The notes: generated from the sequence alone by a model not told the origin. DNA of 64,000 nt from Fidelibacterota bacterium (GCA_021736185.1 JAIPGJ010000001.1:141-64140); one strand, 5' to 3'; shown: positions 2,882-45,484, counted from the stretch's first letter. Made by a program: numbers and translations.

Positions 2882-2913
2882 AAAAAAAGAGACCGCCCTT
2901 TTGGGACAGCCTC
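2882..2913 (-). terminator. Terminator-like hairpin downstream of the minus-strand heptaheme cytochrome
   Basis: A-run, then gagaccgccc-tttt-gggacagcctc. On the minus strand this reads as an imperfect 10-bp stem with G-U wobbles followed by T7. Confidence 0.45.
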
Positions 2914-2922
2914 TATTTCTTA

Positions 2923-18738: not shown

Positions 18739-18855
18739 CAGAATCGAAACAATTAAAGAGAATTGATATGCTTCGACCAGCTCAGCAAGACATACCAAGA
18801 GATTTAGTGCAATAATATTATCTCAAATTGAAATTGATTGAAGAAAGATAAAATC

Positions 18856-20118: not shown

Positions 20119-20133
20119 CTTCAGGAGATTTAA

Positions 20134-23320: not shown

Positions 23321-25792
23321 TTATTTTACCAGAAGGCATTTCCCTGAAAGTTCTTGATTTCCCAGCGTCGCTTTAAATAAATAAACACCACTGGGGAGAT
23401 TGTCAGCTTCCCAAGTGAGGGTCAGGCTGCCTTGTCTGGCATCCTGTTTTACCATGTCCACTTCTCGTCCATCAAGGCTGTAGAGTTTTAGCTCGAGAAT
23501 ACCAGCTTCCTGAATGCTGAACCGGAATCGGGTCGTCGAATTAAATGGATTGGGGTAGTGCTCTTCTAGCGTGAATGATTGCGGGCTGATACTGGCTGGG
23601 GAATCAATATCTGAGGCAATAAAGTTCACTTTAAAATCATCCAGATAGATCGTACCGGCATCTTTATTATTTTCATCGGTTTCAGCCAGATAAATTTTGG
23701 TCCAGGTGAGAGGGAAGCTGAGGATGGCATTGGGATTACCCCAGTATGGGACAGCATCTTCCAGCATTACTGTGACCTCTCTCCACTCGTTCTCCCAGTC
23801 AATACCAGGTGAGGCTGTCGTGAAGTCGAGGACGAATTTTTCATTCTGAGCGTTCTTAAACTCACCCCGTATCCAGTGTGCTGAGTTGTCACCATAAACC
23901 TGGAGCGAAACAGATTCAGGTGTACCTGAAATTTGGATATTGCAATCAAGGTAGAGAACACTGGTACCCCCTGTGGTCAGGCTGTAGTCCAATTTCCCTG
24001 AAGTTGGAGCAGATACGAATTGAGTATTGTCTGCTGTAAAACTACACGCTGCCAGGTTGATCCTTGCACCGCTGATGGTGAAGTTGTTGGTATTATCAAA
24101 ACTATCGATAGTAACCGAGGTTGAGCTACCAATTGCCAGGGGAATTGTGGCGGTTACCTCATGAAAGGTGGCCGTGATTGTGCCTTCTCCAATACTTTCA
24201 GCTTGGACAACTCCCGTTGCAGAAATTGTAGCAATATCAGGACTTACCCACCAGGTATAAGCTTCAGGTTCAACATGGATCAAATTGCCAAAAGCATCTC
24301 TAGAGACTGCGGAAATCACCTGTGACTCACCGGGTTCGAGGACAACTGCAGCGGGCTGCAGCGAAAGTGTAGCTATGTCTGTGACATGGACCCAGGTGGT
24401 ATCATGAATATCACCGCTACTCACGTATACATAACCCTCAGACTCGGTAGTGCTGGCTGAGAGTAGTCCGGTTGCGGAGATCGTACCGATGGTTGGATCG
24501 CAGGACCACTGCACAGACCCATCTGATATAGTAACAGGATTAAAATATTGATCTGTTCCGTAGACTGAGAATTGGAGCTGGGTTTCCACCAGTGTGAAAG
24601 TCTCACTCCAGGGTAGATTAATATATGCAAGGGAACCAAGGGGAGCTTTGGAAATGGCCATGAGTGCGTTTGCCACAGATCGCTCACCACCTGCATCGGA
24701 TGGGCTATTGACAACATTGCCTCGGACAACCATAGTGGTAGAGCCACCGCCATCCAGGTTGACAGCTTGATAAATACCCCACTCCAACATATAATCTGCT
24801 AATTCAAAGAGACTCATGCCTACACTGTAGTCCCCTTGTCTTCCATCAACCGTTACAAAAAACACGGTTGTACTATCTTCTGAGAAGCCTACAGCTGTTC
24901 GGGGGTGGCGATCCTGTGCAAAGCTGGAGCCCACGGATTCTTCCACCCATTCAACACTGCTAACACCATTTCGAATAATTCTGGGTCCACCTCCCACTAA
25001 CTGTGTCAGTGCATCTGCGCTTGGTGGTAGTGCCAGGTCAATGGTCAAGGTATCACCAACAAACATGGAATTATTGAGAAACGCTCCTGCCGTACCGTGA
25101 CCTGAAAGCACTGCTCCTTCTGCTGATAAGGGGATGGTAGAGTTGCCATGTCCATTTGCCTGGATACTATCTTTGGCAGTGACCACAGCGAGCATGGAAT
25201 TGCCAACGCCATGAGGTGAATTCACGTATTCAACTGTGATTTCAGATCCCCATTCGTTGGTACCTGTACTGGCCCCCATATAGCGATTATAGAGTACGAG
25301 CATGTCAGTATTCCTGACTTCGTTGACTCCATTGATATCAATTGAAAGGCTGTCCCCTTTGGATATTTGACCACTAAAAGTAACCACATCGATAAAGGGT
25401 TGTTTGTTGTCTGTAAGGGCGAATACCGATCGAATGTGAGGACGCTTTAACAAGGTCCCATTAATAATTTGAGAGCCAATACTGATTCCACCACTGGCAT
25501 AAAAGTCAGCATTGATGGCACCTATGACTGTATGTCCGGGAGCACTCGATCGAGCAGCCATGGAGGATGTGCGCTCGTAGCCGGCAATATTATTACCTGC
25601 TTTTATGGTCTCTAGTGTGTTCATGGTGTCAGAGAGATCGATTTCCAGAATTTGTAGGTGCCAGGGCCCACCAGGGAGAAAGGCGTGGTGATGGACAATG
25701 CCTGGACCAACAGGGCGACTGCTAAGGGTTTGCGCTTCTATTGAGACGAATGATAGTGCAATGATCATCATAAGCAGGGCTGTTTTACGCAT
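23321..25792 (-). CDS. Secreted phosphodiester glycosidase (DUF2233) with Ig-like domains and a T9SS C-terminal sorting domain
   Basis: Signal peptide. ...TAVGFSEDSTTVFFVTVDGRQ...GMSLFELADYMLEWGIYQAVNLDGGGSTTM matches the phosphodiester glycosidase core. C-terminal HYPNPFNS...LYSLDGREV...SGVYLFKA...LLVK is the T9SS C-terminal domain. Confidence 0.8.
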   Translation of the reverse strand: MRKTALLMMIIALSFVSIEAQTLSSRPVGPGIVHHHAFLPGGPWHLQILEIDLSDTMNTLETIKAGNNIAGYERTSSMAARSSAPGHTVIGAINADFYASGGISIGSQIINGTLLKRPHIRSVFALTDNKQPFIDVVTFSGQISKGDSLSIDINGVNEVRNTDMLVLYNRYMGASTGTNEWGSEITVEYVNSPHGVGNSMLAVVTAKDSIQANGHGNSTIPLSAEGAVLSGHGTAGAFLNNSMFVGDTLTIDLALPPSADALTQLVGGGPRIIRNGVSSVEWVEESVGSSFAQDRHPRTAVGFSEDSTTVFFVTVDGRQGDYSVGMSLFELADYMLEWGIYQAVNLDGGGSTTMVVRGNVVNSPSDAGGERSVANALMAISKAPLGSLAYINLPWSETFTLVETQLQFSVYGTDQYFNPVTISDGSVQWSCDPTIGTISATGLLSASTTESEGYVYVSSGDIHDTTWVHVTDIATLSLQPAAVVLEPGESQVISAVSRDAFGNLIHVEPEAYTWWVSPDIATISATGVVQAESIGEGTITATFHEVTATIPLAIGSSTSVTIDSFDNTNNFTISGARINLAACSFTADNTQFVSAPTSGKLDYSLTTGGTSVLYLDCNIQISGTPESVSLQVYGDNSAHWIRGEFKNAQNEKFVLDFTTASPGIDWENEWREVTVMLEDAVPYWGNPNAILSFPLTWTKIYLAETDENNKDAGTIYLDDFKVNFIASDIDSPASISPQSFTLEEHYPNPFNSTTRFRFSIQEAGILELKLYSLDGREVDMVKQDARQGSLTLTWEADNLPSGVYLFKATLGNQELSGKCLLVK

Positions 25793-27746: not shown

Positions 27747-28892
27747 ATGGGAACACTACTCAAAACCGATGAAGCCCTGAACAATGCCTACTCAGAAGAG
27801 TTGGCTGCAAGAGGCGTGTCGCGTAGAGATTTTATTAAATTCTGTACTGCGATTACAGCTGCAATGGGATTGCCAGTTGGAATGGTGGCTAAAGTTGCCG
27901 AAACGGTAGCCAATCCAAAACGTCCACCTGTAATCTGGCTTCATTTCCAAGAATGTACAGGTTGCACCGAGTCACTACTCCGTGCTACGCATCCAACTGT
28001 TGAGAACCTTGTTTTGGACTTGATCTCGTTGGATTATTCTGAAACGCTTTGCGCCGCTGCTGGCCATCAAGTGGAAGAAGCATTGCACAACTCTGTTGAA
28101 GCCAATGCAGGCAAATTTATTCTTGTCATCGAAGGATCGATTCCAACAGCTGAAAATGGTATCTACTGTAAGATCGGCGGTCGCACTGCCATGGAGATCA
28201 TGGCAGATATTGGTCCCAAGGCAGCTGCTGTAGTTGCTATCGGCTCATGCGCAAGCTGGGGCGGAGTACAGTCTTCCGGTCCTAATCCTACTGGAGCCAA
28301 GGGCATTCATGAAGTATTTACGGATAAGCCTGTGATCAACCTTCCAGGTTGTCCAGCCAGTCCCTACAATCTATTGCAGACCGTTCTCTACTACCTGACA
28401 TTAGGTAAACTGCCTCAACTGGACGAGAAGAACCGCCCCATGCTGGCCTATGGCAAGCTTATCCATGAGAACTGTGAACGTCGTCCACATTTCGATGCTG
28501 GTCGTTTTGCTCAGCAGTTTGGTGATGCCGGTCATCGCCAGGGCTGGTGCCTGTATAAACTTGGTTGTAAAGGTCCCGAAACCTACGCGAACTGTCCATC
28601 GATCCTCTACGGGGATGTGGGGTCAGGCGCATGGCCAGTGGGTACTGGACATCCATGTTTTGGGTGTTCGGAAGAAGGTGTCGGATTCACCAAAGCAATT
28701 CACGAACAAGCCGATGTATTTACGGTGCGGCCACCTTCCTTATATCCTGAGGTCGACACACCTCAAGGTAATGGGTTGGGAGTTGGCGCTGCCGCAGTGG
28801 TAGGCGCTGCCGCCGGTATTGCTATCGGAGCTTCCGTAGCTACGGCGAAGAAGACAAAGGAATCCGATCAATCCTCATCAACTGAATCCTAA
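27747..28892 (+). CDS. hybO: [NiFe] hydrogenase small subunit, Tat-exported, with C-terminal membrane anchor (group 1, Hyb type)
   Basis: SRRDFIKFC Tat motif. PVIWLHFQECTGCTESLL proximal-cluster motif. C-terminal hydrophobic anchor GVGAAAVVGAAAGIAIGA. Confidence 0.9.
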   Translation: MGTLLKTDEALNNAYSEELAARGVSRRDFIKFCTAITAAMGLPVGMVAKVAETVANPKRPPVIWLHFQECTGCTESLLRATHPTVENLVLDLISLDYSETLCAAAGHQVEEALHNSVEANAGKFILVIEGSIPTAENGIYCKIGGRTAMEIMADIGPKAAAVVAIGSCASWGGVQSSGPNPTGAKGIHEVFTDKPVINLPGCPASPYNLLQTVLYYLTLGKLPQLDEKNRPMLAYGKLIHENCERRPHFDAGRFAQQFGDAGHRQGWCLYKLGCKGPETYANCPSILYGDVGSGAWPVGTGHPCFGCSEEGVGFTKAIHEQADVFTVRPPSLYPEVDTPQGNGLGVGAAAVVGAAAGIAIGASVATAKKTKESDQSSSTES

Positions 28893-28903
28893 GAGGCGTC
28901 ATT

Positions 28904-29956
28904 ATGCAAGTTGATAGAAGAGAATTTTTCAAAATCCTGTCCGCGGGTGCGGTTACGATGTCCAGCATCAGTACCGTTCAAGCTCGTAGCGTAGCGACAC
29001 TTCCGCCAGAGGCTGAAGGTGTGCTTTACGATGCCACGCTTTGCATCGGGTGTAAATCATGTGAAGTGGCCTGTAAACGTAATAACAGCATGCCCATGGA
29101 CTTTGGTTCCTATGAGGAAAGCCTCGGTGTGGAGGGTGTCTGGGATGCTCCCAAAAACCTGAATGCGAAGACATTAAATAAGATTCAGGTGTATCGAAAT
29201 GGGAAAGCAACTACGAGAAATCAGGAAAAAGATGGCTTTTCATTCATTCGTCGGGCCTGTATGCACTGTGCCGATCCGGACTGTGCTTCTGCTTGTCCAA
29301 CAACGGCCTTTACAAAAGACCCCAAGACCGGGATTGTCAGCTGGGAAAAGGATAACTGCTGTGGCTGTCGCTACTGCCAGATAGCCTGTCCATATGACAT
29401 CCCCAAGTTTGAATACGATAAAGCTATTCCACTGGTCCATAAATGCGAAATGTGCTCCCATGTACAGGCTGAGGGTGGCATACCCGGATGCGCAGAATTC
29501 TGTCCAACCGGAGCCACGATCCATGGGAAGCTTACTGATATCCTGGAAGAGGCTAAGCGTCGTATTGCCCTGCAGGAAGGGGATGAATATCCCTATCCTA
29601 CCGCGTCGTTGAAAGGCGTATATCGCCGTACCAGCGATAAAGATGGATCCTTCATTCAGGACGAAGCGCAGGATAACTCCTTTATCCAGCGTAGGCCTGT
29701 GGCCAAGTACATTGACTATATCTATGGTGAGCAAGAGAGTGGAGGGGCTCAGTACTTGATTCTCTCTGCAGTACCTTTCGAGAAATTGGGACTGCCCCGT
29801 CGCGGATTTACCTCGTCGGCTGTTCGCTCGGAAAATATCTCACACACGCTCTACAAGGGAATGATTGCACCGATCGCCCTCTTGGGTGGTCTGGTCTTCG
29901 CAGCTCATCGTAGTTCCAAATCACTAGCTGACGGCGAGGAGGTGGGTGATGAGTGA
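28904..29956 (+). CDS. hybA: Hydrogenase-2-type 4x[4Fe-4S] ferredoxin subunit (HybA/NrfC-like), Tat-exported
   Basis: RREFFK Tat motif. Four Cys clusters: CIGCKSCEVAC, CMHCADPDCASACP, CCGCRYCQIACP, CEMC...CAEFCP. C-terminal TM helix. Confidence 0.85.
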   Translation: MQVDRREFFKILSAGAVTMSSISTVQARSVATLPPEAEGVLYDATLCIGCKSCEVACKRNNSMPMDFGSYEESLGVEGVWDAPKNLNAKTLNKIQVYRNGKATTRNQEKDGFSFIRRACMHCADPDCASACPTTAFTKDPKTGIVSWEKDNCCGCRYCQIACPYDIPKFEYDKAIPLVHKCEMCSHVQAEGGIPGCAEFCPTGATIHGKLTDILEEAKRRIALQEGDEYPYPTASLKGVYRRTSDKDGSFIQDEAQDNSFIQRRPVAKYIDYIYGEQESGGAQYLILSAVPFEKLGLPRRGFTSSAVRSENISHTLYKGMIAPIALLGGLVFAAHRSSKSLADGEEVGDE

Positions 29957-31088
29957 TACTTATGCGCCATTAGGTGGTAAATTGTGGACAAAGCCCTTTT
30001 CCATTCTATTCATGCTGGCAGTGGTAGGCCTGGTCCTCATAGGCTACCGTTTTCTCTTTGGCTTGGGGGCGGTAACCAATCTCAATGACGGATATCCATG
30101 GGGTCTCTGGATTGTCTATGACATTCTGGTAGCCACTGGATTGGCTTGCGGTGGTTATGCCATGGCTATTCTTGTCTATGCCTTCAATCGCGGCCAGTAT
30201 CATCCGCTGATCAGACCGGCCTTGCTGGCTAGTGTCTTTGGATACACGCTTGCTGCAGGTGCCATTGTCATAGATACGGGGCGTTACTGGAACCTCATTA
30301 ACATATTCCTGCCGCAGACAAGCAATATTGGAAGTTCCTGGATGGTAGAGGTGGCCATTTCCATCTCAGCCTACATCGTCGTCCTGTGGTTGGAACTTTC
30401 CCCTGTGATGCTTGAGAAGTGGAACAAGACCAAACTTCGTCGGCGTGTACACCGTATCATGTTTGTGGTGGTGGCCTTCGGGATGCTTTTCCCGACGCTG
30501 CACCAGAGTTCTTTGGGTGGTCTGATGATTGTCGCTGGTGACAAACTGTCTCCCCTGTGGCAAACCAACTGGCTTCCGGCACTCTTCCTGCTTTCAGCAC
30601 TCTCCATGGGATTTGCTGTGGTGGTTTTCGAGGCAATCTTTTCAGCCACGGTGCTGAAGCGACCCTATGAACAGTCCATGTTGAGTAAGTTAGCCGGGAC
30701 CATTCCTTGGATACTCGGGTTTTATCTGATCTTGCGCTGGACCACCTTGCTGATCAACGGTGGTCTTAGCGACTGGGCACTGAATGCTAAAGGCATCATG
30801 TTCATTATTGAAAATCTGCTGTTCATTTATCCCTTCATTGTCTTGTTGAGCGAGGCGAACAGAGGGAAACTGACGCAGTTGTTTTATGCTTCCATCTCAA
30901 TCCTGCTGGCAGGCGCAGTGTATCGATTTGATGCCTTCCTGGTAGGATTCGAACCAGGTGGCGGTTATGTCTATTTTCCAGCTGTTGCTGAGATCCTGAT
31001 CACTGTTGGTATCATCTCCATCGAGCTGGTAGCTTACTTATTCTTTGTTAAACGTTTCCCGGTTTTACCGGTGCTAAAAGATGCCTAG
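29949..31088 (+). CDS. hybB: NrfD/PsrC-family integral membrane quinone-interacting subunit
   Basis: About 10 TM helices. Its position between hybA and the large subunit matches the hyb operon order. ATG 29949 follows GGAGG. The ORF track starts at GTG 29946. Confidence 0.85.
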   Translation: MSDTYAPLGGKLWTKPFSILFMLAVVGLVLIGYRFLFGLGAVTNLNDGYPWGLWIVYDILVATGLACGGYAMAILVYAFNRGQYHPLIRPALLASVFGYTLAAGAIVIDTGRYWNLINIFLPQTSNIGSSWMVEVAISISAYIVVLWLELSPVMLEKWNKTKLRRRVHRIMFVVVAFGMLFPTLHQSSLGGLMIVAGDKLSPLWQTNWLPALFLLSALSMGFAVVVFEAIFSATVLKRPYEQSMLSKLAGTIPWILGFYLILRWTTLLINGGLSDWALNAKGIMFIIENLLFIYPFIVLLSEANRGKLTQLFYASISILLAGAVYRFDAFLVGFEPGGGYVYFPAVAEILITVGIISIELVAYLFFVKRFPVLPVLKDA

Positions 31089-31100
31089 GGAGGATTTCTA

Positions 31101-32804
31101 ATGGCTAAACGTATTGTTGTAGATCCCGTGACCAGAATCGAAGGACACCTGCGCATCGATTGCGAGGTGAAGAATGGAAAAATCTCAAATGCCTGGTCAT
31201 CGGGACAGATGTGGCGTGGAATCGAGACCATCTTGGAAGGTCGTGACCCCAGGGACGCCTGGGTTTTTACCCAGCGTATCTGCGGTGTTTGTACCACGGT
31301 ACATGCCATAACATCAGTCAGAGCTGTAGAGAATGCCCTGGCCATGGAAGTGCCGTTGAACGCTCAGTATATTCGAAATATGATCATTGCGGCTCATGGT
31401 ATCCACGATCATATCGTTCATTTTTATCATCTGTCTGCCCTCGACTGGGTAGATGTTGTCTCTGCCCTTTCAGCAGATCCTGCCAAGGCTTCCAAACTGG
31501 CGGAGAGCCTTTCTGATTGGCCACATAATGGGGTTCAGGAATTCAAGGCTGTTCAAGATAAGTTGAAAGCCTTTGTGGGTTCAGGACAGCTTGGCATTTT
31601 TGCCAACGGCTACTGGGGACACCCAGCCATGAAGCTGTCACCTGAGGTAAACCTGCTGGCTGCTGCACATTATCTCCAGGCTTTTGAGATTCAGCGCTTG
31701 GCCAACCAGATTACCACCATCCTGGGATCAAAGACCCCCCATATTCAGAATCTGGCTGTAGGTGGCGTTGCCAATCCCATCAATCCTGACAGTGAGGATG
31801 CTCTTAACATGGAGCGTCTGGCAGCGATCAAGACTTTGATGGATAAGCTGGAACAGTTCATTTATCAGGCTTATTTTGTTGATGTTACAGCGATTGGTGG
31901 ATTCTATGCAGACTGGACTCAATATGGATCAGGTGTCATGAACTACTTGTCCGTTCCGGATTTCCCGACTGATACGAAGGGAACTCAATTCGGCATGCCC
32001 GGTGGATATATTCCCAACGGTGATGTGGGTGCCTTCAAGCCCATCAACTCATTCAACGACGCCATGTTTGAAAAAGGCGTTAAAGAAAGCATCAAGCACT
32101 CCTGGTATGATGGTGATCATAATCGACATCCATACAAGGGGGAGACTATTCCCAAGTATACGGATTGGGACGATGACGGTGCCTACAGCTGGGTAAAATC
32201 ACCTACATTCAATGATCAGCCTGCTCAGGTTGGTCCCTTGGCCAATGTGCTAGGTATGTATGCCGCAGGTCATAAAACCACCCAAAAAGTGGCGAATCTT
32301 GCGCTGGAGCGTGTGTCGGCGATTGCCGGGACAAAGGTTGGAATCGGTGCCTTGCATTCTACAATAGGTCGCCATGCAGCACGCTGTATTCGTACGGCTG
32401 TTCTTTATGAAGAGCTTCAAAAGAACTACGATCTTCTCATTAATAATATAGCAGGTGGCGATATGACCACATTTAACCCACCTGTATTTCCCAAGGGTGA
32501 GCAGACGGGCTTCGGTTTTCATGAAGCACCTCGTGGTACCTTGAGTCACTGGGTGGTCATCAATAATGGTAAGATCAAGAACTACCAGTGCGTGGTTCCT
32601 TCGACTTGGAACGCCGGTCCTCGAAACGGCGATGACAAGCTGGGACCATACGAGGCATCCTTGGTGGGTAACCCCATCGCGGATGAAGAGAAGCCTCTGG
32701 AGTTATTGCGGACGGTGCATTCCTTTGATCCATGCCTGGCATGCGCCATCCATCTCCATGACAACGATCGCAAGGACATTGTGAAAGTCAATGTCCTTCC
32801 CTGA
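31101..32804 (+). CDS. hybC: [NiFe] hydrogenase large subunit
   Basis: N-terminal RIEGHLRID...RICGVCTTVH (CxxC Ni ligands) and C-terminal DPCLACAIH (DPCxxCxxH) motifs. Cys, not Sec, at the C-terminal motif. Confidence 0.9.
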   Translation: MAKRIVVDPVTRIEGHLRIDCEVKNGKISNAWSSGQMWRGIETILEGRDPRDAWVFTQRICGVCTTVHAITSVRAVENALAMEVPLNAQYIRNMIIAAHGIHDHIVHFYHLSALDWVDVVSALSADPAKASKLAESLSDWPHNGVQEFKAVQDKLKAFVGSGQLGIFANGYWGHPAMKLSPEVNLLAAAHYLQAFEIQRLANQITTILGSKTPHIQNLAVGGVANPINPDSEDALNMERLAAIKTLMDKLEQFIYQAYFVDVTAIGGFYADWTQYGSGVMNYLSVPDFPTDTKGTQFGMPGGYIPNGDVGAFKPINSFNDAMFEKGVKESIKHSWYDGDHNRHPYKGETIPKYTDWDDDGAYSWVKSPTFNDQPAQVGPLANVLGMYAAGHKTTQKVANLALERVSAIAGTKVGIGALHSTIGRHAARCIRTAVLYEELQKNYDLLINNIAGGDMTTFNPPVFPKGEQTGFGFHEAPRGTLSHWVVINNGKIKNYQCVVPSTWNAGPRNGDDKLGPYEASLVGNPIADEEKPLELLRTVHSFDPCLACAIHLHDNDRKDIVKVNVLP

Positions 32805-33312
32805 CGTTGTTGTACTAGGACTGGGTAACCTGTTACTGCAGGATGAGGGCGTGGGAATCCACGCCCTCCGCATTCTGCAGGAGAATTACCTGTTTACCCC
32901 CCAAATTGAACTCGTTGATGGGGGAACCTCCGGCCTGGATCTTTTACAATTTTTCAGGCCTGAATCAAAGATGATCATGCTGGATGCCATGCTCTTTGAG
33001 CAATCAGCAGGCAGTATCGGTCGCGTGGAAAATGAGGATATTCACGCTCGCCTGAATACCAAAACATCTGTGCATCACTTGGGGTTGAGCGACCTGCTTG
33101 CTATCGCCAAACTGACGGATGTCACTCCCCGGGAAATCGTCCTTTTCGGAGTTCAGCCTGAAAGTATGGAACTGAAAGTAGAGCTCACAAAGACGGTGAA
33201 TGATGCCATTCCAAAGCTTATGGAGTATGTGATTCAGCAGCTAGGGGAGTGGGATGTGAAAACATCCACCTTGAAAAATGAGGGAAAGGGAACCACTCAG
33301 GCAGACTGGTAG
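32791..33312 (+). CDS. hybD: Hydrogenase maturation endopeptidase (HybD/HyaD family)
   Basis: VVVLGLGNLLLQDEGVGIHA...ELVDGGTSGLDLL family signature. Overlaps the hybC stop. Confidence 0.85.
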   Translation: MSFPDVVVLGLGNLLLQDEGVGIHALRILQENYLFTPQIELVDGGTSGLDLLQFFRPESKMIMLDAMLFEQSAGSIGRVENEDIHARLNTKTSVHHLGLSDLLAIAKLTDVTPREIVLFGVQPESMELKVELTKTVNDAIPKLMEYVIQQLGEWDVKTSTLKNEGKGTTQADW

Positions 33313-33352: not shown

Positions 33353-33733
33353 CTATTTCATCACCCCGGCATGGGTTAACATGTAGGCGACGGCATCCTC
33401 AATATCCTTTTCAGAACACTGAGAACACATCCCCATAACAGGGAGCTCGCCATATTTACCGCGGTAGCCATGAACAGTATTGTACACGAGTTGGTCAAAC
33501 CCCTTCTCAGCACTCTCCTGCCAACGGCTATTCTGATCTAAGCGATGTGCACCCTCGATGGCGCCAGTATGACAGAGCATGCAATTATCCTTGTAAATTT
33601 TCTCACCATTAACCAGGTCAGCATGGATATCATGCAAATTAAGTTCGCTTTTTGAGCTACAGCTGAAGATTGCTGCAATCATGAGTAAACTGGATGCTAA
33701 AAAAAGTGATCGATACATGGATTCCCCTCTCAC
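33353..33733 (-). CDS. Monoheme class-I c-type cytochrome
   Basis: Signal peptide. A single CMLCH motif with a downstream Met. Likely start MYRSLFL (33718). Confidence 0.75.
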   Translation of the reverse strand: MRGESMYRSLFLASSLLMIAAIFSCSSKSELNLHDIHADLVNGEKIYKDNCMLCHTGAIEGAHRLDQNSRWQESAEKGFDQLVYNTVHGYRGKYGELPVMGMCSQCSEKDIEDAVAYMLTHAGVMK

Positions 33734-37451: not shown

Positions 37452-37982
37452 CTAAGCAGTCAGCATCGAGAGCTCGTTTTGACAGGTCTGGCAAAACATA
37501 TCTGACTTTTGATCCATTTCTTCTACATAGGTGGTTGAGACCATGACGCAGCCAGGCTTTAGGCAGTGTTTCAGTCCAAACGTGTGACCGAGCTCATGGA
37601 CGATACACTTGATGATACGATCCGAAAATATTTGTGGATCACTGGCGAGACCATATCGTCTATTCTCTAAACGATGCCCTGAGACCAGGGCCACGGATCC
37701 ACCCAGGTAGGCCTGTCCAAATATGTAACTGAGTACGGGTATAAATAAATCCAAGTCAGTGACGCCGACGATTTTATCATCTTCACCTGCCAAAGGGAGC
37801 AACTTTTGTATGATTTCATTGGCATTATACTGAGATCTCACCGGATTGAAGAAGGGGGTCAAGTCCAGATGTTGACCGCTCAATCTGGTTTCCATCTTGA
37901 AGCGATTGCTGAGCACAGAAAGCATTGTTTCCATCGTAGAAACGCTGGAAAACTGTAGAGGAATGATCCTGATCAGGGGCAT
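37452..37982 (-). CDS. Archaemetzincin-like zinc metallopeptidase (M54)
   Basis: HELGHTFGLKHCLKPGCVM-x16-CQTC reproduces the archaemetzincin signature HExxHxxGx3Cx4CxMx17CxxC. Confidence 0.7.
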   Translation of the reverse strand: MPLIRIIPLQFSSVSTMETMLSVLSNRFKMETRLSGQHLDLTPFFNPVRSQYNANEIIQKLLPLAGEDDKIVGVTDLDLFIPVLSYIFGQAYLGGSVALVSGHRLENRRYGLASDPQIFSDRIIKCIVHELGHTFGLKHCLKPGCVMVSTTYVEEMDQKSDMFCQTCQNELSMLTA

Positions 37983-38002: not shown

Positions 38003-39343
38003 CTATTTTGGTTTCTCTATTTTATACTTTTTAATTTTACTGTAAAGGGTTACCCGGTCAACCCCCAGAGCTTTGGCCGCGCGTGAGATATTCCAATCAT
38101 ATTTAGTAAGTATTGCCTCAATGTGATGTTGTTCCATATCCTGGATGGACTCCCAAGTGGGTTTGGACATCTGGTGTTCGAAGGGGAGATCTTTGAGTTG
38201 CACCGTATCACCGGTTCCGATGACAATGGCTCGCTCAATGAGATTTTCAAGTTCACGTACGTTCCCAGGGAAAGCATAATTGTTCAAGGCTTTGGCTGCT
38301 CGTTTACCGATGTAGCGCGTTCCCTTGTTCATCTGGTCAGCATAGAGTTTAACAAAGTGTTCGGAGAGGAGTTTAATATCCTCTGGTCGTTCCCGTAGTG
38401 GCGGTATTTCAATTGAGAATACATTTAATCTATAATACAAATCCTCTCGAAACTCTCCAGCTTTGACCATGGTCTGCAAGTCCCGGTTGGTAGCGCAGAT
38501 CACTCGAAAGTCAGATTGGAGTTCACGGTTCCCGCCAACCCGGGTAAAGCGTTTTGATTCCAATACGCGCAATAATTCTATTTGCATCTTCATGGAGATA
38601 GTAGAAATCTCGTCCAGAAAAAGAGTTGCCCCATCAGCCATTTCAAATTTGCCTTTTCGCGCATATTGAGCACCGGTAAAAGCACCTCGTTCATGACCGA
38701 ACAGCTCGCTTTCCATGAGACTTTCAGCAATGGCGCCGCAATGCACAGTTACCATGGGAAAGAAACGTCTCGGCGAATTCATATGAATAGCTTTGGCGAT
38801 GAGTTCTTTACCCGTACCACTTTCGCCATGAATGATCACTGTTGAATCAGTTTCAGCCACAATTCTGACCTGCTCGAGGACTTTGAGAATACCCTCGCTT
38901 TGACCGATGATGTATTCAACATTGACCAGGCTTTTAATCCGATCCTGAAGCGAGAGGTTTTCACGGCTCAATTGAATGGATTTGCTCGCATTCCGTATGA
39001 TATGTGTGACTGCATCTGGATCGAATGGTTTGCATACATAATCGTAGGCTCCATCTTTCAAAGCTTGTACCGCAGAATCCACGGAAGCAAAAGCGGTCAT
39101 AATAATGACGATGGTATCTTCATTGATGGCTTTAATTCGCCGGTTGAGCTCAAGTCCGTCCATTCCAGGGAGTTTGATATCGATCAGGACGATGTGAAAG
39201 TGGAATGCTTCAATCTTTTTCAGGGCAACTTTGGCATCTTCAGCTGTGTCGACATCATAACCATCCTCGAGAAACCAATTGGATAGTGAATCCCTGACAG
39301 ATAGCTCGTCATCGACTACCAATATGGAAAGATTATTGTCCAT
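38003..39343 (-). CDS. Sigma54-dependent response regulator (NtrC family)
   Basis: Receiver domain (ILVVDDE...D). AAA+ core with GESGTGKE Walker A and the GAFTGA sigma54-contact motif (ERGAFTGAQ). C-terminal Fis-type HTH. ATG 39343 follows GGGAGG. Confidence 0.9.
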   Translation of the reverse strand: MDNNLSILVVDDELSVRDSLSNWFLEDGYDVDTAEDAKVALKKIEAFHFHIVLIDIKLPGMDGLELNRRIKAINEDTIVIIMTAFASVDSAVQALKDGAYDYVCKPFDPDAVTHIIRNASKSIQLSRENLSLQDRIKSLVNVEYIIGQSEGILKVLEQVRIVAETDSTVIIHGESGTGKELIAKAIHMNSPRRFFPMVTVHCGAIAESLMESELFGHERGAFTGAQYARKGKFEMADGATLFLDEISTISMKMQIELLRVLESKRFTRVGGNRELQSDFRVICATNRDLQTMVKAGEFREDLYYRLNVFSIEIPPLRERPEDIKLLSEHFVKLYADQMNKGTRYIGKRAAKALNNYAFPGNVRELENLIERAIVIGTGDTVQLKDLPFEHQMSKPTWESIQDMEQHHIEAILTKYDWNISRAAKALGVDRVTLYSKIKKYKIEKPK

Positions 39344-41009
39344 CCTCAAGCCTCCCAACACTAAGTTTAAATATAAATTTCATTGAGGTTCCAACTCCTG
39401 GAGTTGAATCAACAGCCACCCTGGCCTGATGTTGTTCCAAAATCCCATACGTGACTGCCAGTCCAAGGCCAATTCCAGACATTTCTTTTTTGCTGGAGAA
39501 AAAGGGCTCAAAAATATGCTCCAAATCAGATTCTGGAATACCAATGCCATTGTCTTTAATTTCAATAATAACATGCTCCATATCCGGATTAGAGCTGCGG
39601 TAGGTCACCAGACCCTCCGAACCTGGACGAACAGCTTCCAGGGCATTGGTAAGTGTGGCCAGACAGGCCTGAATGATTTGGTTGCCATTGGCCATGATTT
39701 TATCTCTGCTGGCTGAAAAATCAGTAACGAGTCTCACATCAGAGATTTGGAAACTATGCTGAATAAGCTTTTCAGTTTCCATAAGCACCTCATTAAGGTG
39801 AATTTCCTCAAATTTTTCGCTACCATCCCTGGAAAAATTTAGCAGACCTTTTACAATATTACCACAGCGGGTAGTTTCAGACTGAATCATATCAAGATGC
39901 TTTAAGACAGCGGTTTTCTTCTCATCCGTGAAATCACTGGTCTGAAGTATTCTGGAAACCAGCTTGGCATAGGTCAGAACTCCTGCCAAGGGGTTATTAA
40001 TTTCATGTGCTACCGAGGACGAAAGGCGACCCAGCGAGGCGAGTCTTTCGATTTGATATATTTCATTCTGAGTTCTGGCGATATCCTCCGATTTGCTCCG
40101 GACCTTACTTTCCAGCTCACTGGACCATTCATGTAACTCACGATTACTTTCATTAATGGATTCCAGCATGGTATTCAGTGCCAGACCCACCTGGTGAATA
40201 TCAATCAGGTCATTGGGTTGTATATCCACTCGAACCGATAAATTACCGGCAGAAACGGCCCGGCTGGCTTCCACAATCCGTTGGAGGGGCTGATTGATGC
40301 GGCGCTGGACAAAATACAACAAGGTGCCGACCAGGAGGATCAGAAAGAGCACCACAATGCTGAAGTATTCATACAAAACTTTGTTCAATGCCGAGTCCAC
40401 CTCAGTCAAGGGCAATTCAATTTCCATAAATCCCAGTACTTCGGAGGGGGAAGATGTTTGATGACAGGAAATCGAACCGCAGGAGGGGGCAGACATGATG
40501 GGTGAGAGGACGATCATATTCCGGCCGTCCTTAAGCTCCACATTGTATACGCAAGTAGCCGGCATGCCCCATTGAGCTGGATCTACTTCCGCATGGCAAT
40601 GGGAGCAGGGGAGCAGGGGCTCTTCGCCCCGGGCCTTACTTGAGGCATCCTGAGTGTGATGTTTGATCTCACCGCGATTATTATATATCCTAATCGCGCT
40701 GATACCAGGCACCTCCAACACCTCGTTGATGGCGCTGGCAAGTTCAGCATGATCCTCACTGATCATACTGCTGCGGATCGACTTATCAATGACCGTAGCC
40801 ATTCGTTTTCCAAAGCGGGTAGTGACACTTTCCAGATAATTGTTTGACATTGAAAAGATGAGCCAGGCTAAAAATGCGAAGAGAATCACAGACATGCTTA
40901 CCAGCAGGCTAAGGAGATGTCCATATAATGATTTTGGTTGAAACTTTTTTTTCATAAATGAGATGTGGTGTTTTTGCATTGGTGGAACCTGATTGAGCTT
41001 AGAGTTCAT
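39333..41009 (-). CDS. Sensor histidine kinase with a periplasmic heme-c-binding (CxxCH) sensor domain
   Basis: TM1, a roughly 170-aa periplasmic domain containing CSHCH plus CGSISCH, TM2, HAMP, HisKA (SSSVAHEINNPLAGV), HATPase_c (DNGIGIPE...GIGLGL). Start chosen at MNSKLNQ (GAGG-preceded ATG 41009). The ORF track extends to 41102. Confidence 0.85.
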   Translation of the reverse strand: MNSKLNQVPPMQKHHISFMKKKFQPKSLYGHLLSLLVSMSVILFAFLAWLIFSMSNNYLESVTTRFGKRMATVIDKSIRSSMISEDHAELASAINEVLEVPGISAIRIYNNRGEIKHHTQDASSKARGEEPLLPCSHCHAEVDPAQWGMPATCVYNVELKDGRNMIVLSPIMSAPSCGSISCHQTSSPSEVLGFMEIELPLTEVDSALNKVLYEYFSIVVLFLILLVGTLLYFVQRRINQPLQRIVEASRAVSAGNLSVRVDIQPNDLIDIHQVGLALNTMLESINESNRELHEWSSELESKVRSKSEDIARTQNEIYQIERLASLGRLSSSVAHEINNPLAGVLTYAKLVSRILQTSDFTDEKKTAVLKHLDMIQSETTRCGNIVKGLLNFSRDGSEKFEEIHLNEVLMETEKLIQHSFQISDVRLVTDFSASRDKIMANGNQIIQACLATLTNALEAVRPGSEGLVTYRSSNPDMEHVIIEIKDNGIGIPESDLEHIFEPFFSSKKEMSGIGLGLAVTYGILEQHQARVAVDSTPGVGTSMKFIFKLSVGRLEDGQ

Positions 41010-41076
41010 GTCCCCCTCAATAAAAAAGTGACTTCGTAAATAATCGCGTGAGTTAATTATGCATAATACATGCCAG

Positions 41077-41784
41077 TCAACAGACATAAGCCAGGCCATC
41101 ACTAATGCCTAGCAGGTATTTTGAGAATGCGCTTTTATTCAATTTGGATCGCCGAAGGAGTGTGTGCGGCGTAGGTTCATCTGACCTATGGAGGAGTTTG
41201 CTGAACCTATCCAGATCTTCCTCAGCCAGTTTTAGGTACTCATCTCGCCTGAGATATTCAAGTTCAAGTGAGTTTTCATCCACTTCCAATTCTACAAACC
41301 AGAGTTCTTCCTCAGGGCTCATATATAAATAAGTGTCCTGAATTTGATTTGAGCTGAACAGGGGATTGGACTGAAGAATTTGTCCAGATACGGGTGTGCG
41401 CAGGTAGATAATATCATCTTCCAATTGCAGCCAACTGAAACATTGTTTTTGAAGGAGTGCGGTGTTGACCTTGGGTGTAATTATTTTTTGAACTGAGGAA
41501 AAATATTGCCACAAAAATGCATCGATTCCCAGGCGAATTTTACCTTTCCCCGTTCTCTTGATCCAGAAATGCCGATGAGTGAATTGGAGCCCCGGTGTAA
41601 ACTGAATCACTGATACTTCAGGGTTTTTAATATCGATGGTGGTGGTTTCAGCTTTTATTCCAGGTCGTCGACACCCCCGCATCATTTCCCTGTGAAAATC
41701 ACATAAGTCGCAATTCTGTTTGAGGGGACAAAGTTGATATTCAACGGATTCGGCATCCATCCATATACATTTTTGCGATTCCAT
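41077..41784 (-). CDS. Soluble GcvH-fold protein with an N-terminal Cys-rich region
   Basis: HFWIKRTGKGKIRLGIDAF...IITPKV...IYLRTPVSGQILQSN aligns with the H-protein core (HEW..VGITD(F/Y)A..LP.VG..ES.K..IYAPVSGEV..N..L). No Lys at the lipoylation position. N-terminal CIW...C..C..C..C cluster. No TM helix. Confidence 0.6.
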   Translation of the reverse strand: MESQKCIWMDAESVEYQLCPLKQNCDLCDFHREMMRGCRRPGIKAETTTIDIKNPEVSVIQFTPGLQFTHRHFWIKRTGKGKIRLGIDAFLWQYFSSVQKIITPKVNTALLQKQCFSWLQLEDDIIYLRTPVSGQILQSNPLFSSNQIQDTYLYMSPEEELWFVELEVDENSLELEYLRRDEYLKLAEEDLDRFSKLLHRSDEPTPHTLLRRSKLNKSAFSKYLLGISDGLAYVC

Positions 41785-41873
41785 CTTTGATCCACCTATC
41801 TATCATTCAGCAGGGTAGGGAGGGGTAGTCCTAAAAGGACCCCCCTCCAAAAAGTCCCACTGACTCACTATTG

Positions 41874-42566
41874 TCATTTAGCTGCATCAATGAATTCAGA
41901 CTGGAATTCTTCCCATATTTCAGGTGAGAGTGATTCCAGCACCTTATCTTCGATTTCGCCACCTTCCTGGAGCAGGATAGGTTGAACGTTCAGATCATAT
42001 TTTCTTTCGGCAAAAGCGAGAACATCACGTAATCGGGCTTTTTCCTGCTGAATCCATCCTTGAGCTTTTTCACCTAGAATGAGCATGGTTTTTTCTGCAT
42101 CCCAGCGCTTGGGAGCCATATCGAACAGCCAATTCTCTGTGAAATCATTATGGGTACGCTTGCTGAATTTATGCAGGGCTTTTTTATTGATCGATGTTAA
42201 GGTTCCACTTACTGGCGAATAGATTTTCAGGCTTTTCCCATCGCCCATCAAGGTAGCTAGATGATCCCCGCGTTGAATCTCTCCACCACTATATTTATGA
42301 AGTTGTATAGAAACGGGACCTGTTAGAGCGGCTAAAAAATCGTCAATTCCCACTTGAACCTGACCCGCTGATTTGAGATAAGCCCAGGTATGGGTTTTAT
42401 CAAAGAAAACACCGCGGGGCAAGCGGACTTTGGCCAGTGAAAATAGGGGACCTTCAACTTCCTTCAAATAGGAGTAAAAGGGGATGAAAACGAGGAAGAA
42501 ACTTATGATGAGTAAGTATTCAACTCCTTTTGTTGAAAAAATATCAGTATAATAAAAACTAGGCAT
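41874..42566 (-). CDS. Membrane-tethered GcvH-fold protein (paralog B)
   Basis: One N-terminal TM helix, then THTWAYLKSAGQVQVGIDDFLAALTGPVSIQL...GDGKSLKIYSPVSGTLTSINKKAL...NWLFDMAPKRWD, a close match to the GcvH consensus, plus a C-terminal LLQEGGEI extension. Confidence 0.6.
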   Translation of the reverse strand: MPSFYYTDIFSTKGVEYLLIISFFLVFIPFYSYLKEVEGPLFSLAKVRLPRGVFFDKTHTWAYLKSAGQVQVGIDDFLAALTGPVSIQLHKYSGGEIQRGDHLATLMGDGKSLKIYSPVSGTLTSINKKALHKFSKRTHNDFTENWLFDMAPKRWDAEKTMLILGEKAQGWIQQEKARLRDVLAFAERKYDLNVQPILLQEGGEIEDKVLESLSPEIWEEFQSEFIDAAK

Positions 42567-43812
42567 GATTTGTCACCTCATAGTGTTTTGCTTTTTTTTC
42601 TGTCATGGATTCCATGGTTCTTAACACAGGCATACGATGCAGTACCCAACGAAAGATCCAGATTTGTACAAAGAGAATTGATACCGTCACGACAATTTCC
42701 ATCCAGGTGGGCACATATCGGGGAATCTGATCCCAACGATAAGCGATTACGGACACATTCATGCGATTGAGAACAATTCCAATCAGCGCCATGAGTGAGG
42801 CAAGTTTAATAATGAAGGGTGTTCCTAATCTGACTCCTCTGACGAAGAGCAGCATGGGGATGAGGACAAAACCAATCATCTCGAGCATATACCAGGCGCC
42901 CATAGGTGACATGAGATATCCCAGTGTATGATTGTGAACCATATCCACGATTTTAAGGAAGAAGTATACGAACATAGTGACAGCGCATACCTTGGACAAT
43001 CCTCGAATCATAACATTATTACGTTCATCACTATGCTCATCCATTTGATAGGCAAAGACCTTCTGTAGGATACTTCCCTGGAAAATCACCATGCTCAGTC
43101 CAGCAAAAATACTGGAAATGAAAAATAGTGTCGGGATAAACTCAGAATACCACAGAGGATGAATTTTGCCCTTGGCCATGAGGAAAAGCGCTCCAAGTCC
43201 TGACTGGTGTAAGGTGGAAAGGGTGATGCCAAAAATAACGGCACCAATGGTCAGGCGTTTCAGGTTTCGTCGCGCACGCTCCGAACCCAACCATTCCGCT
43301 ATCGTCGGAGAAAATTCGATGAGTTGGGCGACGATATAAAGAATGAAGTGCCAGGCCACCAGGAATAGAATACTGCTGGTCCCAAATGAGTTACCAATAA
43401 CGGGATTGATAATATTCCAGGGTTTTCCCAGATCTAGAATCAAGGCAATTGCATAAAAGGTGTAGGCGAGAAAGCCATTGAGAACGGTCACTCGAACCAA
43501 GGGCTTATATTTTTCCAAACCCAGGATATAAACCATGAAGGTTAATACATAGGCTCCACCGGCAAAGGCCACACCGGTAACCACGTTAAACCCTTTCCAT
43601 AATCCCCAGGGCATGGTTTGAGTCACATTTGAAACTGCTTCTAGACCATAAATAAAGCGTATCACAATGATCACGGCAGCAACCATCACCGTTGGCACTG
43701 AAATCATATTGAACACGGTCCAGGGATTGCCACGTGGTTTTAATTCAGATAGCAAAAATTTCCAAGTGCTGGCAGGACGTTTGTAGCTTTCAGATAGAAT
43801 GGTTTCACTCAT
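42559..43812 (-). CDS. NrfD/PsrC-family polytopic membrane subunit (paralog of hybB)
   Basis: About 10 TM helices. Overlaps the upstream FeS gene by 8 nt. ATG 43812 follows AGGAAGGAG. Confidence 0.8.
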   Translation of the reverse strand: MSETILSESYKRPASTWKFLLSELKPRGNPWTVFNMISVPTVMVAAVIIVIRFIYGLEAVSNVTQTMPWGLWKGFNVVTGVAFAGGAYVLTFMVYILGLEKYKPLVRVTVLNGFLAYTFYAIALILDLGKPWNIINPVIGNSFGTSSILFLVAWHFILYIVAQLIEFSPTIAEWLGSERARRNLKRLTIGAVIFGITLSTLHQSGLGALFLMAKGKIHPLWYSEFIPTLFFISSIFAGLSMVIFQGSILQKVFAYQMDEHSDERNNVMIRGLSKVCAVTMFVYFFLKIVDMVHNHTLGYLMSPMGAWYMLEMIGFVLIPMLLFVRGVRLGTPFIIKLASLMALIGIVLNRMNVSVIAYRWDQIPRYVPTWMEIVVTVSILFVQIWIFRWVLHRMPVLRTMESMTEKKAKHYEVTNHA

Positions 43813-44674
43813 GGTCATCTCCTTCCTTGTCTTTCTCTTTGGTTGCTTCTCTCAAACCCAGGAGCAATGCTGGCCAGAGAACAAAGACAGAAGGAACACT
43901 GTAGAGAAATCCCTTCGTTAATTCGGGGTAAGGCTTGGTTTCAAGATTCGTTTTAAAGCCAAGCTCTTCAAAGGGGACAGGGGATATGTTTAACCAGGAT
44001 GTCCCACCGGCTTCATATTCACCATAGACGTGGTCTACGTATGAATCAGGATCTTCAATGATTCTTTTATGGGCTTCGGCTAATATTTCGCTGCGTTTCC
44101 CAAAAATGAGTGCTTCAGCTGGACAGTTTTCAACGCAGGCTGGGACCTCACCTTTCGTTAATCTGTCAAAACACATCTGGCACTTGCCAATTTTTGGATT
44201 GTTGTCATCGAACTCGAATTGTGGGATATCGAATGGACAGGAGACCATGCAATAGCGACATCCCATACATTTCCCTTCTTCCCAGGTTACAGGTCCTTCT
44301 TTGTGTTTCTTCATGGCCTGAGTGAGACATGCAGATGCACAGGCCGGTTGGGCACAATGCATACATTGTTGTTTGGTATATACTTCACCGACACTGGTCT
44401 CAACGGCGTTGATCACCGAGTATTGATCAGGTTTTAATTTTCGTTTTATGCTACTATCAGGATAGTCATCGCTGGAAGGTTCCGGTAAATTATTAGCAGC
44501 AGCACAGGCAAATTCACACTCCTGGCAGCCTTCACACAAGGTAATGTCATGCAGAATAGCATAAAATTCTTCTGGATCAGAATCCGACTTAGTTTTTCCT
44601 AACGCAGAGACACCAGTGAGGCTGGCGCCCGCTACCCCGAGAGTCTTTAGAAATTCTCGTCTATCAATTGTCAT
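43805..44674 (-). CDS. Tat-exported 4x[4Fe-4S] ferredoxin subunit (NrfC/HybA/DsrO-like) with C-terminal TM anchor
   Basis: RREFLK Tat motif. Four Cys clusters: CEGCQECEFAC, CMHCAQPACASAC, CMGCRYCMVSCP, CQMC...CVENCP. C-terminal hydrophobic helix. Confidence 0.85.
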   Translation of the reverse strand: MTIDRREFLKTLGVAGASLTGVSALGKTKSDSDPEEFYAILHDITLCEGCQECEFACAAANNLPEPSSDDYPDSSIKRKLKPDQYSVINAVETSVGEVYTKQQCMHCAQPACASACLTQAMKKHKEGPVTWEEGKCMGCRYCMVSCPFDIPQFEFDDNNPKIGKCQMCFDRLTKGEVPACVENCPAEALIFGKRSEILAEAHKRIIEDPDSYVDHVYGEYEAGGTSWLNISPVPFEELGFKTNLETKPYPELTKGFLYSVPSVFVLWPALLLGLREATKEKDKEGDDHE

Positions 44675-44725
44675 AATATTTTATCCTTACAGGGTCTAGA
44701 GTAATATTTGTAGGTAGATGGATCA

Positions 44726-45436
44726 TCAGGAATGATGCAATAATTCCTGATTTGATGGATCCAGGATGAGCTTCTGAAATGAACCCCACAAACCTTTGCC
44801 TGCGAATCCCAGAGCGCCCTCGGCAATATCTCCGCCTTCTTGCAGAAGTACCACACCGCGTTCAGCATGGGGAGGCGCAAAAGAATGGGCAAAGAAATCA
44901 CGGATACGGGCGATTTCAGCTTTGAGCCAGCTGGCCGTACTTTGACCCAGATAAAGTCTGCGTGTCTCATGCTCCCAGTTATCGGGTTCCATTTCCAGAA
45001 GCCACCCGAAGGTATAGGGGTCACGATGGACCATGCGCAGGTTTTGAAGTGCTTCAGTATTAATCGTTTTAATCTTGCCGGATACTGGAGCCGTGATGAC
45101 GAGTTTGTTCCCCTTGTGGATGATGTCAAAAAGAGGATCCCCCTGTTTAACCCTGGTGTTGCCTTCAGGTACATGTATTTCTGAAAGAATACCCGTGAGT
45201 CCCTGAATGAATGCGTCAACACCTACCTTGGCGCGACCATTGGTTTCAAGATGCGCCCAGCTGTGGGTAGGACTGAAATATATGCCTGCCGGTACAGCCA
45301 TATTTTCCATCTTGAATTGATACGATTCACGTTTTACGAGTGGGGAGCTGCTGATCGCTTGATTACGTCGCATACTTTGATACCACGTAACACTGATAGC
45401 GATTGCTACAAATAAAATAACGAGTGAGATGACCAT
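44726..45436 (-). CDS. Membrane-tethered GcvH-fold protein (paralog A), first gene of the operon
   Basis: N-terminal TM helix followed by RR (C-in topology), then THSWAHLETNGRAKVGVDAFIQGLTGILSEI...ITAPVSGKIKTINTEAL...GWLLEMEPDNWE, the GcvH core. Strong AGGAGG ribosome-binding site. Confidence 0.6.
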   Translation of the reverse strand: MVISLVILFVAIAISVTWYQSMRRNQAISSSPLVKRESYQFKMENMAVPAGIYFSPTHSWAHLETNGRAKVGVDAFIQGLTGILSEIHVPEGNTRVKQGDPLFDIIHKGNKLVITAPVSGKIKTINTEALQNLRMVHRDPYTFGWLLEMEPDNWEHETRRLYLGQSTASWLKAEIARIRDFFAHSFAPPHAERGVVLLQEGGDIAEGALGFAGKGLWGSFQKLILDPSNQELLHHS

Positions 45437-45468: not shown

Positions 45469-45484
45469 TTCAAGATAGGTGCCA
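45469..45484 (-). promoter_or_regulatory. Candidate sigma54 promoter (minus strand: TGGCAC-N5-TTGAA) about 45 nt upstream of the GcvH-like/NrfCD operon
   Basis: The reverse complement of 45469-45484 reads CTGGCACctatcTTGAAC. The -24 GG is present. The -12 reads GA instead of GC. Geometry relative to the RBS and ATG is appropriate, and an NtrC-family activator is encoded at the 3' end of the operon. Confidence 0.3.

Follow-up and report, generated by a model that had tools for sequence, protein, structure and literature searches.

A sensor histidine kinase is encoded at 39333..41009 of a 64,000-nucleotide (nt) stretch of DNA from a Fidelibacterota bacterium (GCA_021736185.1 JAIPGJ010000001.1:141-64140), which is referred to here as the window. 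The kinase is probably a di-haem Cache sensor kinase. That its periplasmic domain is a haem-c sensor domain, the core idea of an earlier sequence-only reading of this DNA, is well supported in silico. The explanation as a whole, in which a di-haem Cache kinase responds to redox state and signals to a sigma54 regulator, has a probability of about 0.5. Topology, conservation, homology, fold, gene order and sigma54-like elements were computed, and we infer haem attachment, haem number, ligands, signal and regulon. The kinase gene, its parts and its conserved neighbours lie on the minus strand.

A periplasmic domain with two haem motifs

The kinase gene encodes 558 amino acids (aa) and was delimited by its open reading frame (ORF), a ribosome binding site and Pfam matches to HAMP, HisKA and HATPase_c. 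The ATG at 41009 has GAGGGGGA three bases upstream, and an earlier GTG start is possible at 41102 in the same ORF, which ends at 39333. Pfam and NCBIfam match the cytoplasmic domains only, and residues 1-233 have no Pfam match. Transmembrane (TM) segments were called with a 19-residue hydropathy scan together with the positive-inside rule. TM1 spans residues 31-53 (40851..40919) and is preceded by a Lys-rich cytoplasmic tail; the 30 N-terminal residues include six Lys and no acidic residue. TM2 spans residues 215-235 (40305..40367) and is followed directly by QRR and then the HAMP domain. Hydropathy, the Lys-rich N-terminus and the QRR/HAMP sequence after TM2 place the N-terminus inside the cell and residues 54-214 (40368..40850) in the periplasm. 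The sequence-only reading had described a histidine kinase at this location with c-type haem motifs in a periplasmic loop of about 170 aa. The gene, the loop between TM1 and TM2 and the motifs were all recovered, but the loop is 161 aa long. Both motifs are periplasmic; a cytoplasmic position of the CxxCH segment had been named as the case that would speak against a haem sensor.

The first motif, CSHCH (residues 135-139, 40593..40607), is a canonical CxxCH. The second, CGSISCH (residues 177-183, 40461..40481), is a Cx4CH. Given the amino acid composition of the window ORFs, 4.6e-4 CxxCH motifs are expected in 161 aa. Neither CxxCH nor Cx4CH was found in 17,557 aa of other window ORFs, from which four cytochromes and the kinase were excluded. 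Chance occurrence of the motifs is ruled out by the expected count, by this comparison with other ORFs and by their conservation in the family.

To collect the family, the periplasmic domain was searched with HMMER against all of 1.84 billion cluster representatives. At E <= 1e-3 there were 242 homologous clusters at 50% identity, most of them 500-560-aa proteins matched at the same N-terminal position. Conservation was counted in 153 aligned relatives, which are mostly 20-30% identical to the query. C177, C182 and H183 of the Cx4CH motif are each present in 153/153 relatives (100%). The CxxCH motif is kept in approximately 95% (C135 in 145, C138 in 146 and H139 in 147 relatives), and the spacing between the two motifs is about 43 residues across the family. 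Met82 (40764..40766) is near-invariant, being found in 151/153 relatives. Among 94 family members, many of them truncated, 69 have HAMP, 51 HisKA and 43 HATPase_c; only 1 has a methyl-accepting chemotaxis protein (MCP) domain. Word-indexed homologue searches found only two close relatives and, with the domain alignment, mostly truncated fragments from one acidobacterial lineage. Both motifs named in the sequence-only reading are thus conserved family-wide.

The family consensus at the second motif is C-S/A-T/N-A-x-C-H. Cx4CH is a working haem-c attachment motif in Desulfovibrio tetrahaem cytochrome c3, which has haem sites such as CGTAGCH, and the family consensus resembles these sites. Cytochrome c3 differs in being a soluble electron carrier with another fold, and no homology to it was detected in the profile search.

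As a single sequence, the sensor domain gave only chance-level matches to the PDB. Because a profile of the full-length alignment was swamped by kinase domains, a domain-only profile of 37 sequences was used. Its top matches among 177,635 PDB sequences were 3b42 (GSU0935, E 1e-7) followed by 3b47 (GSU0582, E 6e-6), the crystallised c-type-haem periplasmic sensor domains of two Geobacter sulfurreducens chemoreceptors (PMC8396549). 5B82, a Tll0287-like structure, was absent from this search. When the family profile was aligned with the 3b42 sequence using hhalign, a probability of 96% was obtained (E 4.9e-9, 116 columns). The family Cx4CH falls on C140-x-x-C143-H144 of GSU0935, the haem-binding CxxCH, with a two-residue gap between the cysteines and with Cys, Cys and His in register. 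Met82 is aligned with M26 of the 3b42 chain. With the numbering offset taken from His144, residue 110 of the chain, M26 corresponds to Met60 of GSU0935. In that protein Met60 acts as the distal axial ligand; it binds on reduction and is displaced by nitric oxide (NO) or carbon monoxide (CO) (PMC8396549). Met82 is a candidate for the same role at the Cx4CH haem. The family CxxCH falls in a 16-column gap of GSU0935, suggesting that it lies in a family-specific insertion bearing the second motif. The profile segment around it has weak matches to the haem sites of NrfA and NapB. PF21563 (Mcp40H-20_sensor), which represents the two Geobacter domains, was matched by 29/37 domain sequences at E values up to 10 (best E 4.6e-7), and PF11845 (Tll0287-like) weakly by 5/37 (best E 0.0075).

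Alignment to known haem-c sensor domains had been proposed in the sequence-only reading as a check, and it places the domain as a profile-level homologue of GSU0935 and GSU0582. In all three proteins the sensor lies in the periplasm between two TM helices, is followed by HAMP and belongs to the same fold class, with the haem attachment site and distal Met in register. The Geobacter sensors bind one haem on CxxCH, whereas the window kinase has Cx4CH and an inserted second CxxCH. Their output is an MCP domain, whereas that of the window system is HisKA/HATPase with a sigma54 regulator.

The fold was modelled with AlphaFold using residues 25-236 and a 94-sequence alignment; a three-sequence alignment gave a predicted local distance difference test (pLDDT) score of 46 and was discarded. 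The model is confident, with a pLDDT of 86.9 and a predicted template modelling score of 0.79. From the N-terminal side, a long helix runs on from TM1 and is followed by a short helix, a pair of strands and a helical insert with CSHCH. Then come two long strands, the CGSISCH loop, strand five and a last helix that runs on into TM2. The two motif-bearing segments are the least confident, as expected of cofactor-dependent loops. A Foldseek search of the PDB returned the single-Cache sensor domains of WalK, GSU0935 (3b42), KinD, GSU0582 (3b47) and CitA. The periplasmic domain is confidently predicted by the model to have a single-Cache (PAS-like) fold.

CX2-4CH is accepted as a haem signature for sensors of this type, and twelve G. 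sulfurreducens signal transducers have such motifs (PMC8396549). Two of these, GSU0591 and GSU0599, carry two motifs, and GSU0599 is a two-component protein (PMC8396549). Adeh_2011 and Adeh_3383 of A. dehalogenans are PAS-like and homologous to GSU0935 and GSU0582 (PMC8396549, PMC3831638), and are described as having an 'additional haem-binding motif' (PMC3831638). All four resemble the window kinase as signal transducers with two CX2-4CH c-type haem motifs. They were compared by description only, so membership in the same family is presumed, and they come from Desulfuromonadota and Myxococcota rather than Marinimicrobia. In the literature searched, no biochemical study of a two-motif member, these four included, and no report of a purified member of this branch was found. 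Papers on NrfA regulation, NmpR and the comparative genomics of Geobacter added nothing of relevance.

A larger group of extracytoplasmic sensors, the DUF3365/Tll0287 family (PF11845; 5B82), has been reclassified as 'sCache_heme' in datasets that include the GSU0582/0935 domains (2026 preprint PMC12889525). It shares with the window family a Cache fold with covalent haem c and frequent fusion to kinases, MCPs or GGDEF/EAL domains. The haem of Tll0287 has Cys/His ligation, whereas the aligned distal residue in the window family is Met. The Cache_heme collection holds approximately 20,000 sequences from many phyla, with NO-sensor properties (PMC12889525); a search of that paper for the terms 'two heme', 'diheme' and 'CX4CH' gave no match. 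Haem-c periplasmic sensors have been known in Geobacter since 2006-2008, and the sequence-only reading regarded haem-c sensor kinases as rare and mostly a feature of Geobacter-type organisms. Neither point of that reading holds. The Cache_heme sequences are numerous, the two-motif family alone forms 242 clusters, and the window is closest to metagenome-assembled genomes (MAGs) of Candidatus Neomarinimicrobiota.

Transmitter, partner regulator and proposed signal

The cytoplasmic part of the protein is a class I histidine kinase (HAMP-HisKA-HATPase_c) with an intact transmitter. HAMP spans residues 234-286 (40152..40310; PF00672, E 3.1e-8). HisKA, the dimerization and histidine phosphotransfer (DHp) domain, spans residues 326-397 (39819..40034; PF00512) and has the phospho-acceptor His335 (40005-40007) in the H-box AHEINNPL. 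HATPase_c spans residues 443-549 (39363..39683; PF02518, E 9e-21), with the N, G1, F and G2 boxes all there (NALEA, DNGIGI, FEPFF and GIGLGL).

The adjoining gene (38003..39343) encodes a 447-aa NtrC-type sigma54 enhancer-binding response regulator (Pfam Response_reg, Sigma54_activat, AAA_lid_14 and HTH_8). The regulator is intact, with D61 in the receiver, Walker A (GESGTGKE) and GAFTGA in the AAA+ domain, and a Fis-type helix-turn-helix. Its ATG at 39343 overlaps the last 11 nt of the kinase gene, and there is an alternative GTG at 39361. This overlap supports the co-transcription of kinase and regulator noted in the sequence-only reading and suggests that the two are translationally coupled. 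The pair resembles NtrB/NtrC-class systems such as ZraSR and AtoSC, since the transmitter scores best against the AtoS/ZraS models and the regulator against those of AtoC/NtrC/ZraR. However, all scores are below the equivalog cut-offs, and the sensor domain is unrelated to that of ZraS or AtoS.

The domain very probably binds at least one haem covalently, and it is likely that two are bound. Haem A would be attached to Cys177 and Cys182, with His183 as the proximal ligand and Met82 as an exchangeable distal ligand, because this site is homologous to the solved haem site of GSU0935 and GSU0582. Haem B would be attached to Cys135 and Cys138, with His139 as a ligand, within a 16-residue insertion that is lacking in single-haem sensors. 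The assignment of haem B follows from strict conservation of the motif and from the weak profile resemblance to NrfA and NapB haem sites. Haem B would probably serve as an electron entry or tuning site, and both haems would equilibrate with periplasmic electron carriers. Reduction or oxidation would then put Met82 on or off haem A with a high-spin to low-spin change as in GSU0935; the spin state of GSU0582 and GSU0935 changes with redox (PMC8396549). A small ligand displacing Met82 would have the same effect.

The change in the Met-haem bond would shift the N-terminal helix, which runs into TM1, relative to the sheet, and likewise the C-terminal helix, which runs into TM2. As these helices are continuous with TM1 and TM2 and no cytoplasmic PAS domain lies between, the change would reach HAMP and DHp directly and alter autophosphorylation at His335. 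The phosphoryl group would pass from His335 to Asp61 of the overlapping NtrC-type regulator. The phosphorylated regulator would activate sigma54 promoters, for which candidates lie before the kinase gene and before a set of HmcB/HmcC-like and GcvH-like genes.

The chance that the signal is redox rather than a gas ligand is about even. We infer a slight preference for redox because a second haem suggests an electron relay and because the neighbouring genes encode a quinone-linked redox module, not nitrogen-oxide enzymes. It is possible, though less probable, that the kinase is a haem-c Cache sensor in which Met82 is driven off haem A by a small ligand (NO, CO or possibly sulfide), so that ambient redox is not what is sensed. 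NO binds to GSU0582 and GSU0935 whether they are oxidised or reduced, CO binds to the reduced proteins, and Met60 gives way to these ligands (PMC8396549). Signalling-fused Cache_heme domains are reported to behave as NO, not O2, sensors (2026 preprint PMC12889525). The sequence-only reading had the kinase sensing periplasmic redox state through covalent haem; homology and conservation support the haem-c domain, while redox is only one candidate signal, since characterised relatives also bind NO and CO. Close relatives of this organism include low-oxygen marine MAGs, for example from the Black Sea at 150 m. NO and sulfide occur in low-oxygen marine water. The conserved gene cluster argues against a gas ligand, as its quinone-linked iron-sulfur (FeS)/NrfD and GcvH-like genes are accompanied by no NO-, nitrite- or CO-metabolising genes, and the second haem fits a role in electron relay more readily than one in gas sensing.

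The number of haems can also be questioned. A single haem at Cx4CH, with CxxCH acting as a metal site, a disulfide or a structural element, would fit the invariance of Cx4CH (153/153) and the absence of CxxCH from about 5% of relatives, including P0003, which is 52% identical and reads FxxIH. A solved homologue also exists for the Cx4CH site only. This reading is nonetheless improbable, since the complete C-x-x-C-H is kept in about 95% of a family otherwise only 20-30% identical, the segment around it weakly matches NrfA and NapB haem sites, and both motifs are counted as haem sites in GSU0599, GSU0591, Adeh_2011 and Adeh_3383 (PMC8396549, PMC3831638). It is far less probable still that the domain is free of haem and that its Cys/His clusters hold Zn or Fe or act as a thiol-disulfide redox switch in the periplasm. 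With four to five cysteines in the periplasm, pairing via Dsb enzymes is conceivable, and sequence by itself is no proof of haem attachment. However, the homologues of the domain include proven haem-c domains, with Cys, Cys, His and the distal Met in register, and an invariant His right after the second Cys of both motifs is a signature of haem c, not of a disulfide or Zn site.

Several observations weigh against a di-haem redox kinase. The window domain scores 13.3 bits (E 0.1) on PF21563, which is below the cut-off of 27, and does not match PF11845. No experimental evidence for haem in any two-motif family member was found in the literature searched. Neither cytochrome-c maturation genes nor rpoN are present within the 64-kb window. 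Both cysteines of motif 1 are lost in P0003, suggesting that haem B is dispensable at least there. The candidate sigma54 element before the GcvH-like genes has TTGA, not TTGC, in its -12 part. Lastly, five pocket changes (R87H, R153C, H185T, S118H and N173S) set the window kinase apart, and its haem ligation may differ from the family norm.

These five changes mark the Marinimicrobia clade. Position 87 (40749-40751) is Arg in the family and His in the clade. Position 153 (40551..40553) is Arg in most of the family and Cys in the clade, where it forms a fifth periplasmic cysteine. Position 185 (40455-40457) is His in 128/153 relatives and Thr in the clade. Position 118 changes from Ser to His and position 173 from Asn to Ser. 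His185, two residues past the haem A His, is the obvious candidate for the distal ligand of haem B in most members. In the clade this residue is lost and His87 and Cys153 are gained, which suggests that ligation is altered. An intermediate state is seen in P0004 (30% identity), which has H87, C153 and H185 together. Wherever the Marinimicrobia orthologues cover them, the haem-motif residues are all conserved, as are Met82, His87 and Cys153.

A speculative and rather unlikely extension is that the clade has rewired its di-haem pockets through R87H, R153C and the loss of His185 to give a His/Cys-ligated or open haem. Such a haem would read sulfide/polysulfide or the electron load of the adjacent module and control that module via sigma54. 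If this were true, the rewired pockets would be a new ligand set for haem-c sensors, and, in a marine phylum that is abundant and uncultured, the module would be a regulated respiratory module of a new kind.

Candidate promoters and the conserved gene cluster

Related loci were identified by scanning species-representative genomes. Four Candidatus Neomarinimicrobiota MAGs encode kinases with 84, 78, 64 and 63% identity, and one metagenome contig has a 63%-identical copy. In the four loci that span the cluster (L001, L002, L004 and L005) the order of eight genes is the same; L003, a short contig, holds the kinase, regulator and peptidase genes only. The last gene of the cluster encodes a Peptidase_M54 (archaemetzincin-like; 37452..37982, Pfam) and has the same position in L001-L005. 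A Peptidase_M54 sequence (7369-8139) also lies beside fragments of a kinase and a sigma54 regulator in L006, which has a distant family member with a 31% identical sensor. This hints at a wider association of Peptidase_M54 with this sensor family. Conserved synteny ends at nuclease and patatin genes. The L001 kinase has an in-frame TAA at 7884-7886 where the window has Glu (KS*DIART), so that this orthologue is called as two genes; the TAA is either a sequencing error or marks a pseudogene.

The conserved genes upstream of the kinase (41077..45436) are the likely regulatory target and were annotated with Pfam, NCBIfam and synteny in the four spanning loci. In order they encode a GcvH-like protein, an HmcB/HybA-like FeS protein with a Tat signal, an HmcC/HybB-like NrfD membrane protein, a second GcvH-like protein and a Cys-rich GcvH-like protein. 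The module therefore has three GcvH-fold paralogues around an FeS/NrfD pair and no catalytic subunit. Two of the paralogues have an N-terminal hydrophobic segment and one has a Cys-rich N-terminus. At the column that corresponds to the lipoyl-lysine of E. coli GcvH they have Gly, Gly and Asp, suggesting that all three are probably not lipoylated.

Two candidate sigma54 elements accompany these genes. A pattern search found the -24/-12 type element TGGCATGTATTATGC at 41061..41075, directly upstream of the kinase in the 67-nt gap between the stop of the preceding gene and the kinase ATG. In this element, CTGGCATGTATTATGCA, GG-N10-GC is intact in all five related loci and the rest of the spacer has diverged. 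A promoter of their own is therefore possible for the kinase and regulator, which would then not be only the tail of the upstream operon. The sequence-only reading had placed the kinase at the 3' end of an NrfCD/GcvH-like operon. The gene order agrees, with NrfC/NrfD-like and GcvH-like genes followed by the kinase, and no terminator-like site was found between the upstream genes and the kinase, but a separate promoter is possible.

The other element, TGGCACCTATCTTGA (45470..45484), is the only match with one mismatch in the pattern search that lies shortly upstream of a gene start. Its distance to the first GcvH-like gene is 34 nt, and it is conserved in all five loci while neighbouring bases vary. 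Conserved blocks, e.g. TGATGAAT.TCT..ACACTT, occur approximately 80-150 nt upstream of this element and could be binding sites for an activator. A third good sigma54-type match, TGGCATCCTTTTTGC, is present at 18-32 on the plus strand, approximately 220 nt upstream of a hexahaem cytochrome gene.

A 12-haem cytochrome gene comes after the hexahaem one (254-1354). Three multihaem cytochrome genes at 254-3720 have 25 CxxCH motifs (6 + 12 + 7), the number of further haem c sites given in the sequence-only reading. With a monohaem class I cytochrome c gene at 33353-33733 (minus strand), the four window cytochrome genes bring the count beyond the kinase to 26. The NiFe hydrogenase of that reading was also found; it is Hyb-type and its genes at 27747-33312 (plus strand) encode a small subunit, HybA-like and HybB-like proteins, a large subunit and a putative maturation protease, with the monohaem cytochrome gene after them. 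The hydrogenase cluster includes an FeS/NrfD pair of its own, which makes the HmcB/HmcC-like pair beside the kinase a second copy. A functional link of the kinase with the cytochromes or hydrogenase, which the sequence-only reading mentioned as context, was rejected, as the cytochromes are 36 kb and the hydrogenase 6 kb from the kinase, both outside the conserved synteny, with pyruvate dehydrogenase, peptidase and epimerase genes in between. The window cytochromes show only that the organism makes c-type cytochromes.

Other window genes include those for pyruvate dehydrogenase E1, lipoyl-bearing E2 and E3 at 16054-21549 (plus strand); the E2 indicates that the organism uses lipoylated proteins elsewhere. 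A secreted 1679-aa M6 peptidase with adhesin and Ig-like domains is encoded at 8289-13328 (plus strand). A secreted 823-aa protein encoded at 23321-25792 (minus strand) carries a C-terminal sorting domain for type IX secretion, as would fit an organism of the FCB group.

Place of the sensor in its family

The kinase is best described as a divergent Marinimicrobia member of the known haem-c Cache sensors, in an under-described branch with two motifs. It extends a known class and does not reveal a new one. The branch with CxxCH and Cx4CH is sizeable, with 242 clusters at 50% identity, and current Pfam models miss most of its members. Ocean water poor in oxygen holds abundant Marinimicrobia, for which no cultured model is known. 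As a sensor that combines a readable cofactor with an intact two-component output and a conserved target cluster, the kinase gives a concrete handle on the control of respiration in these bacteria. Knowing the role of the second haem would reveal how electron transfer and signalling can be coupled in a sensor.

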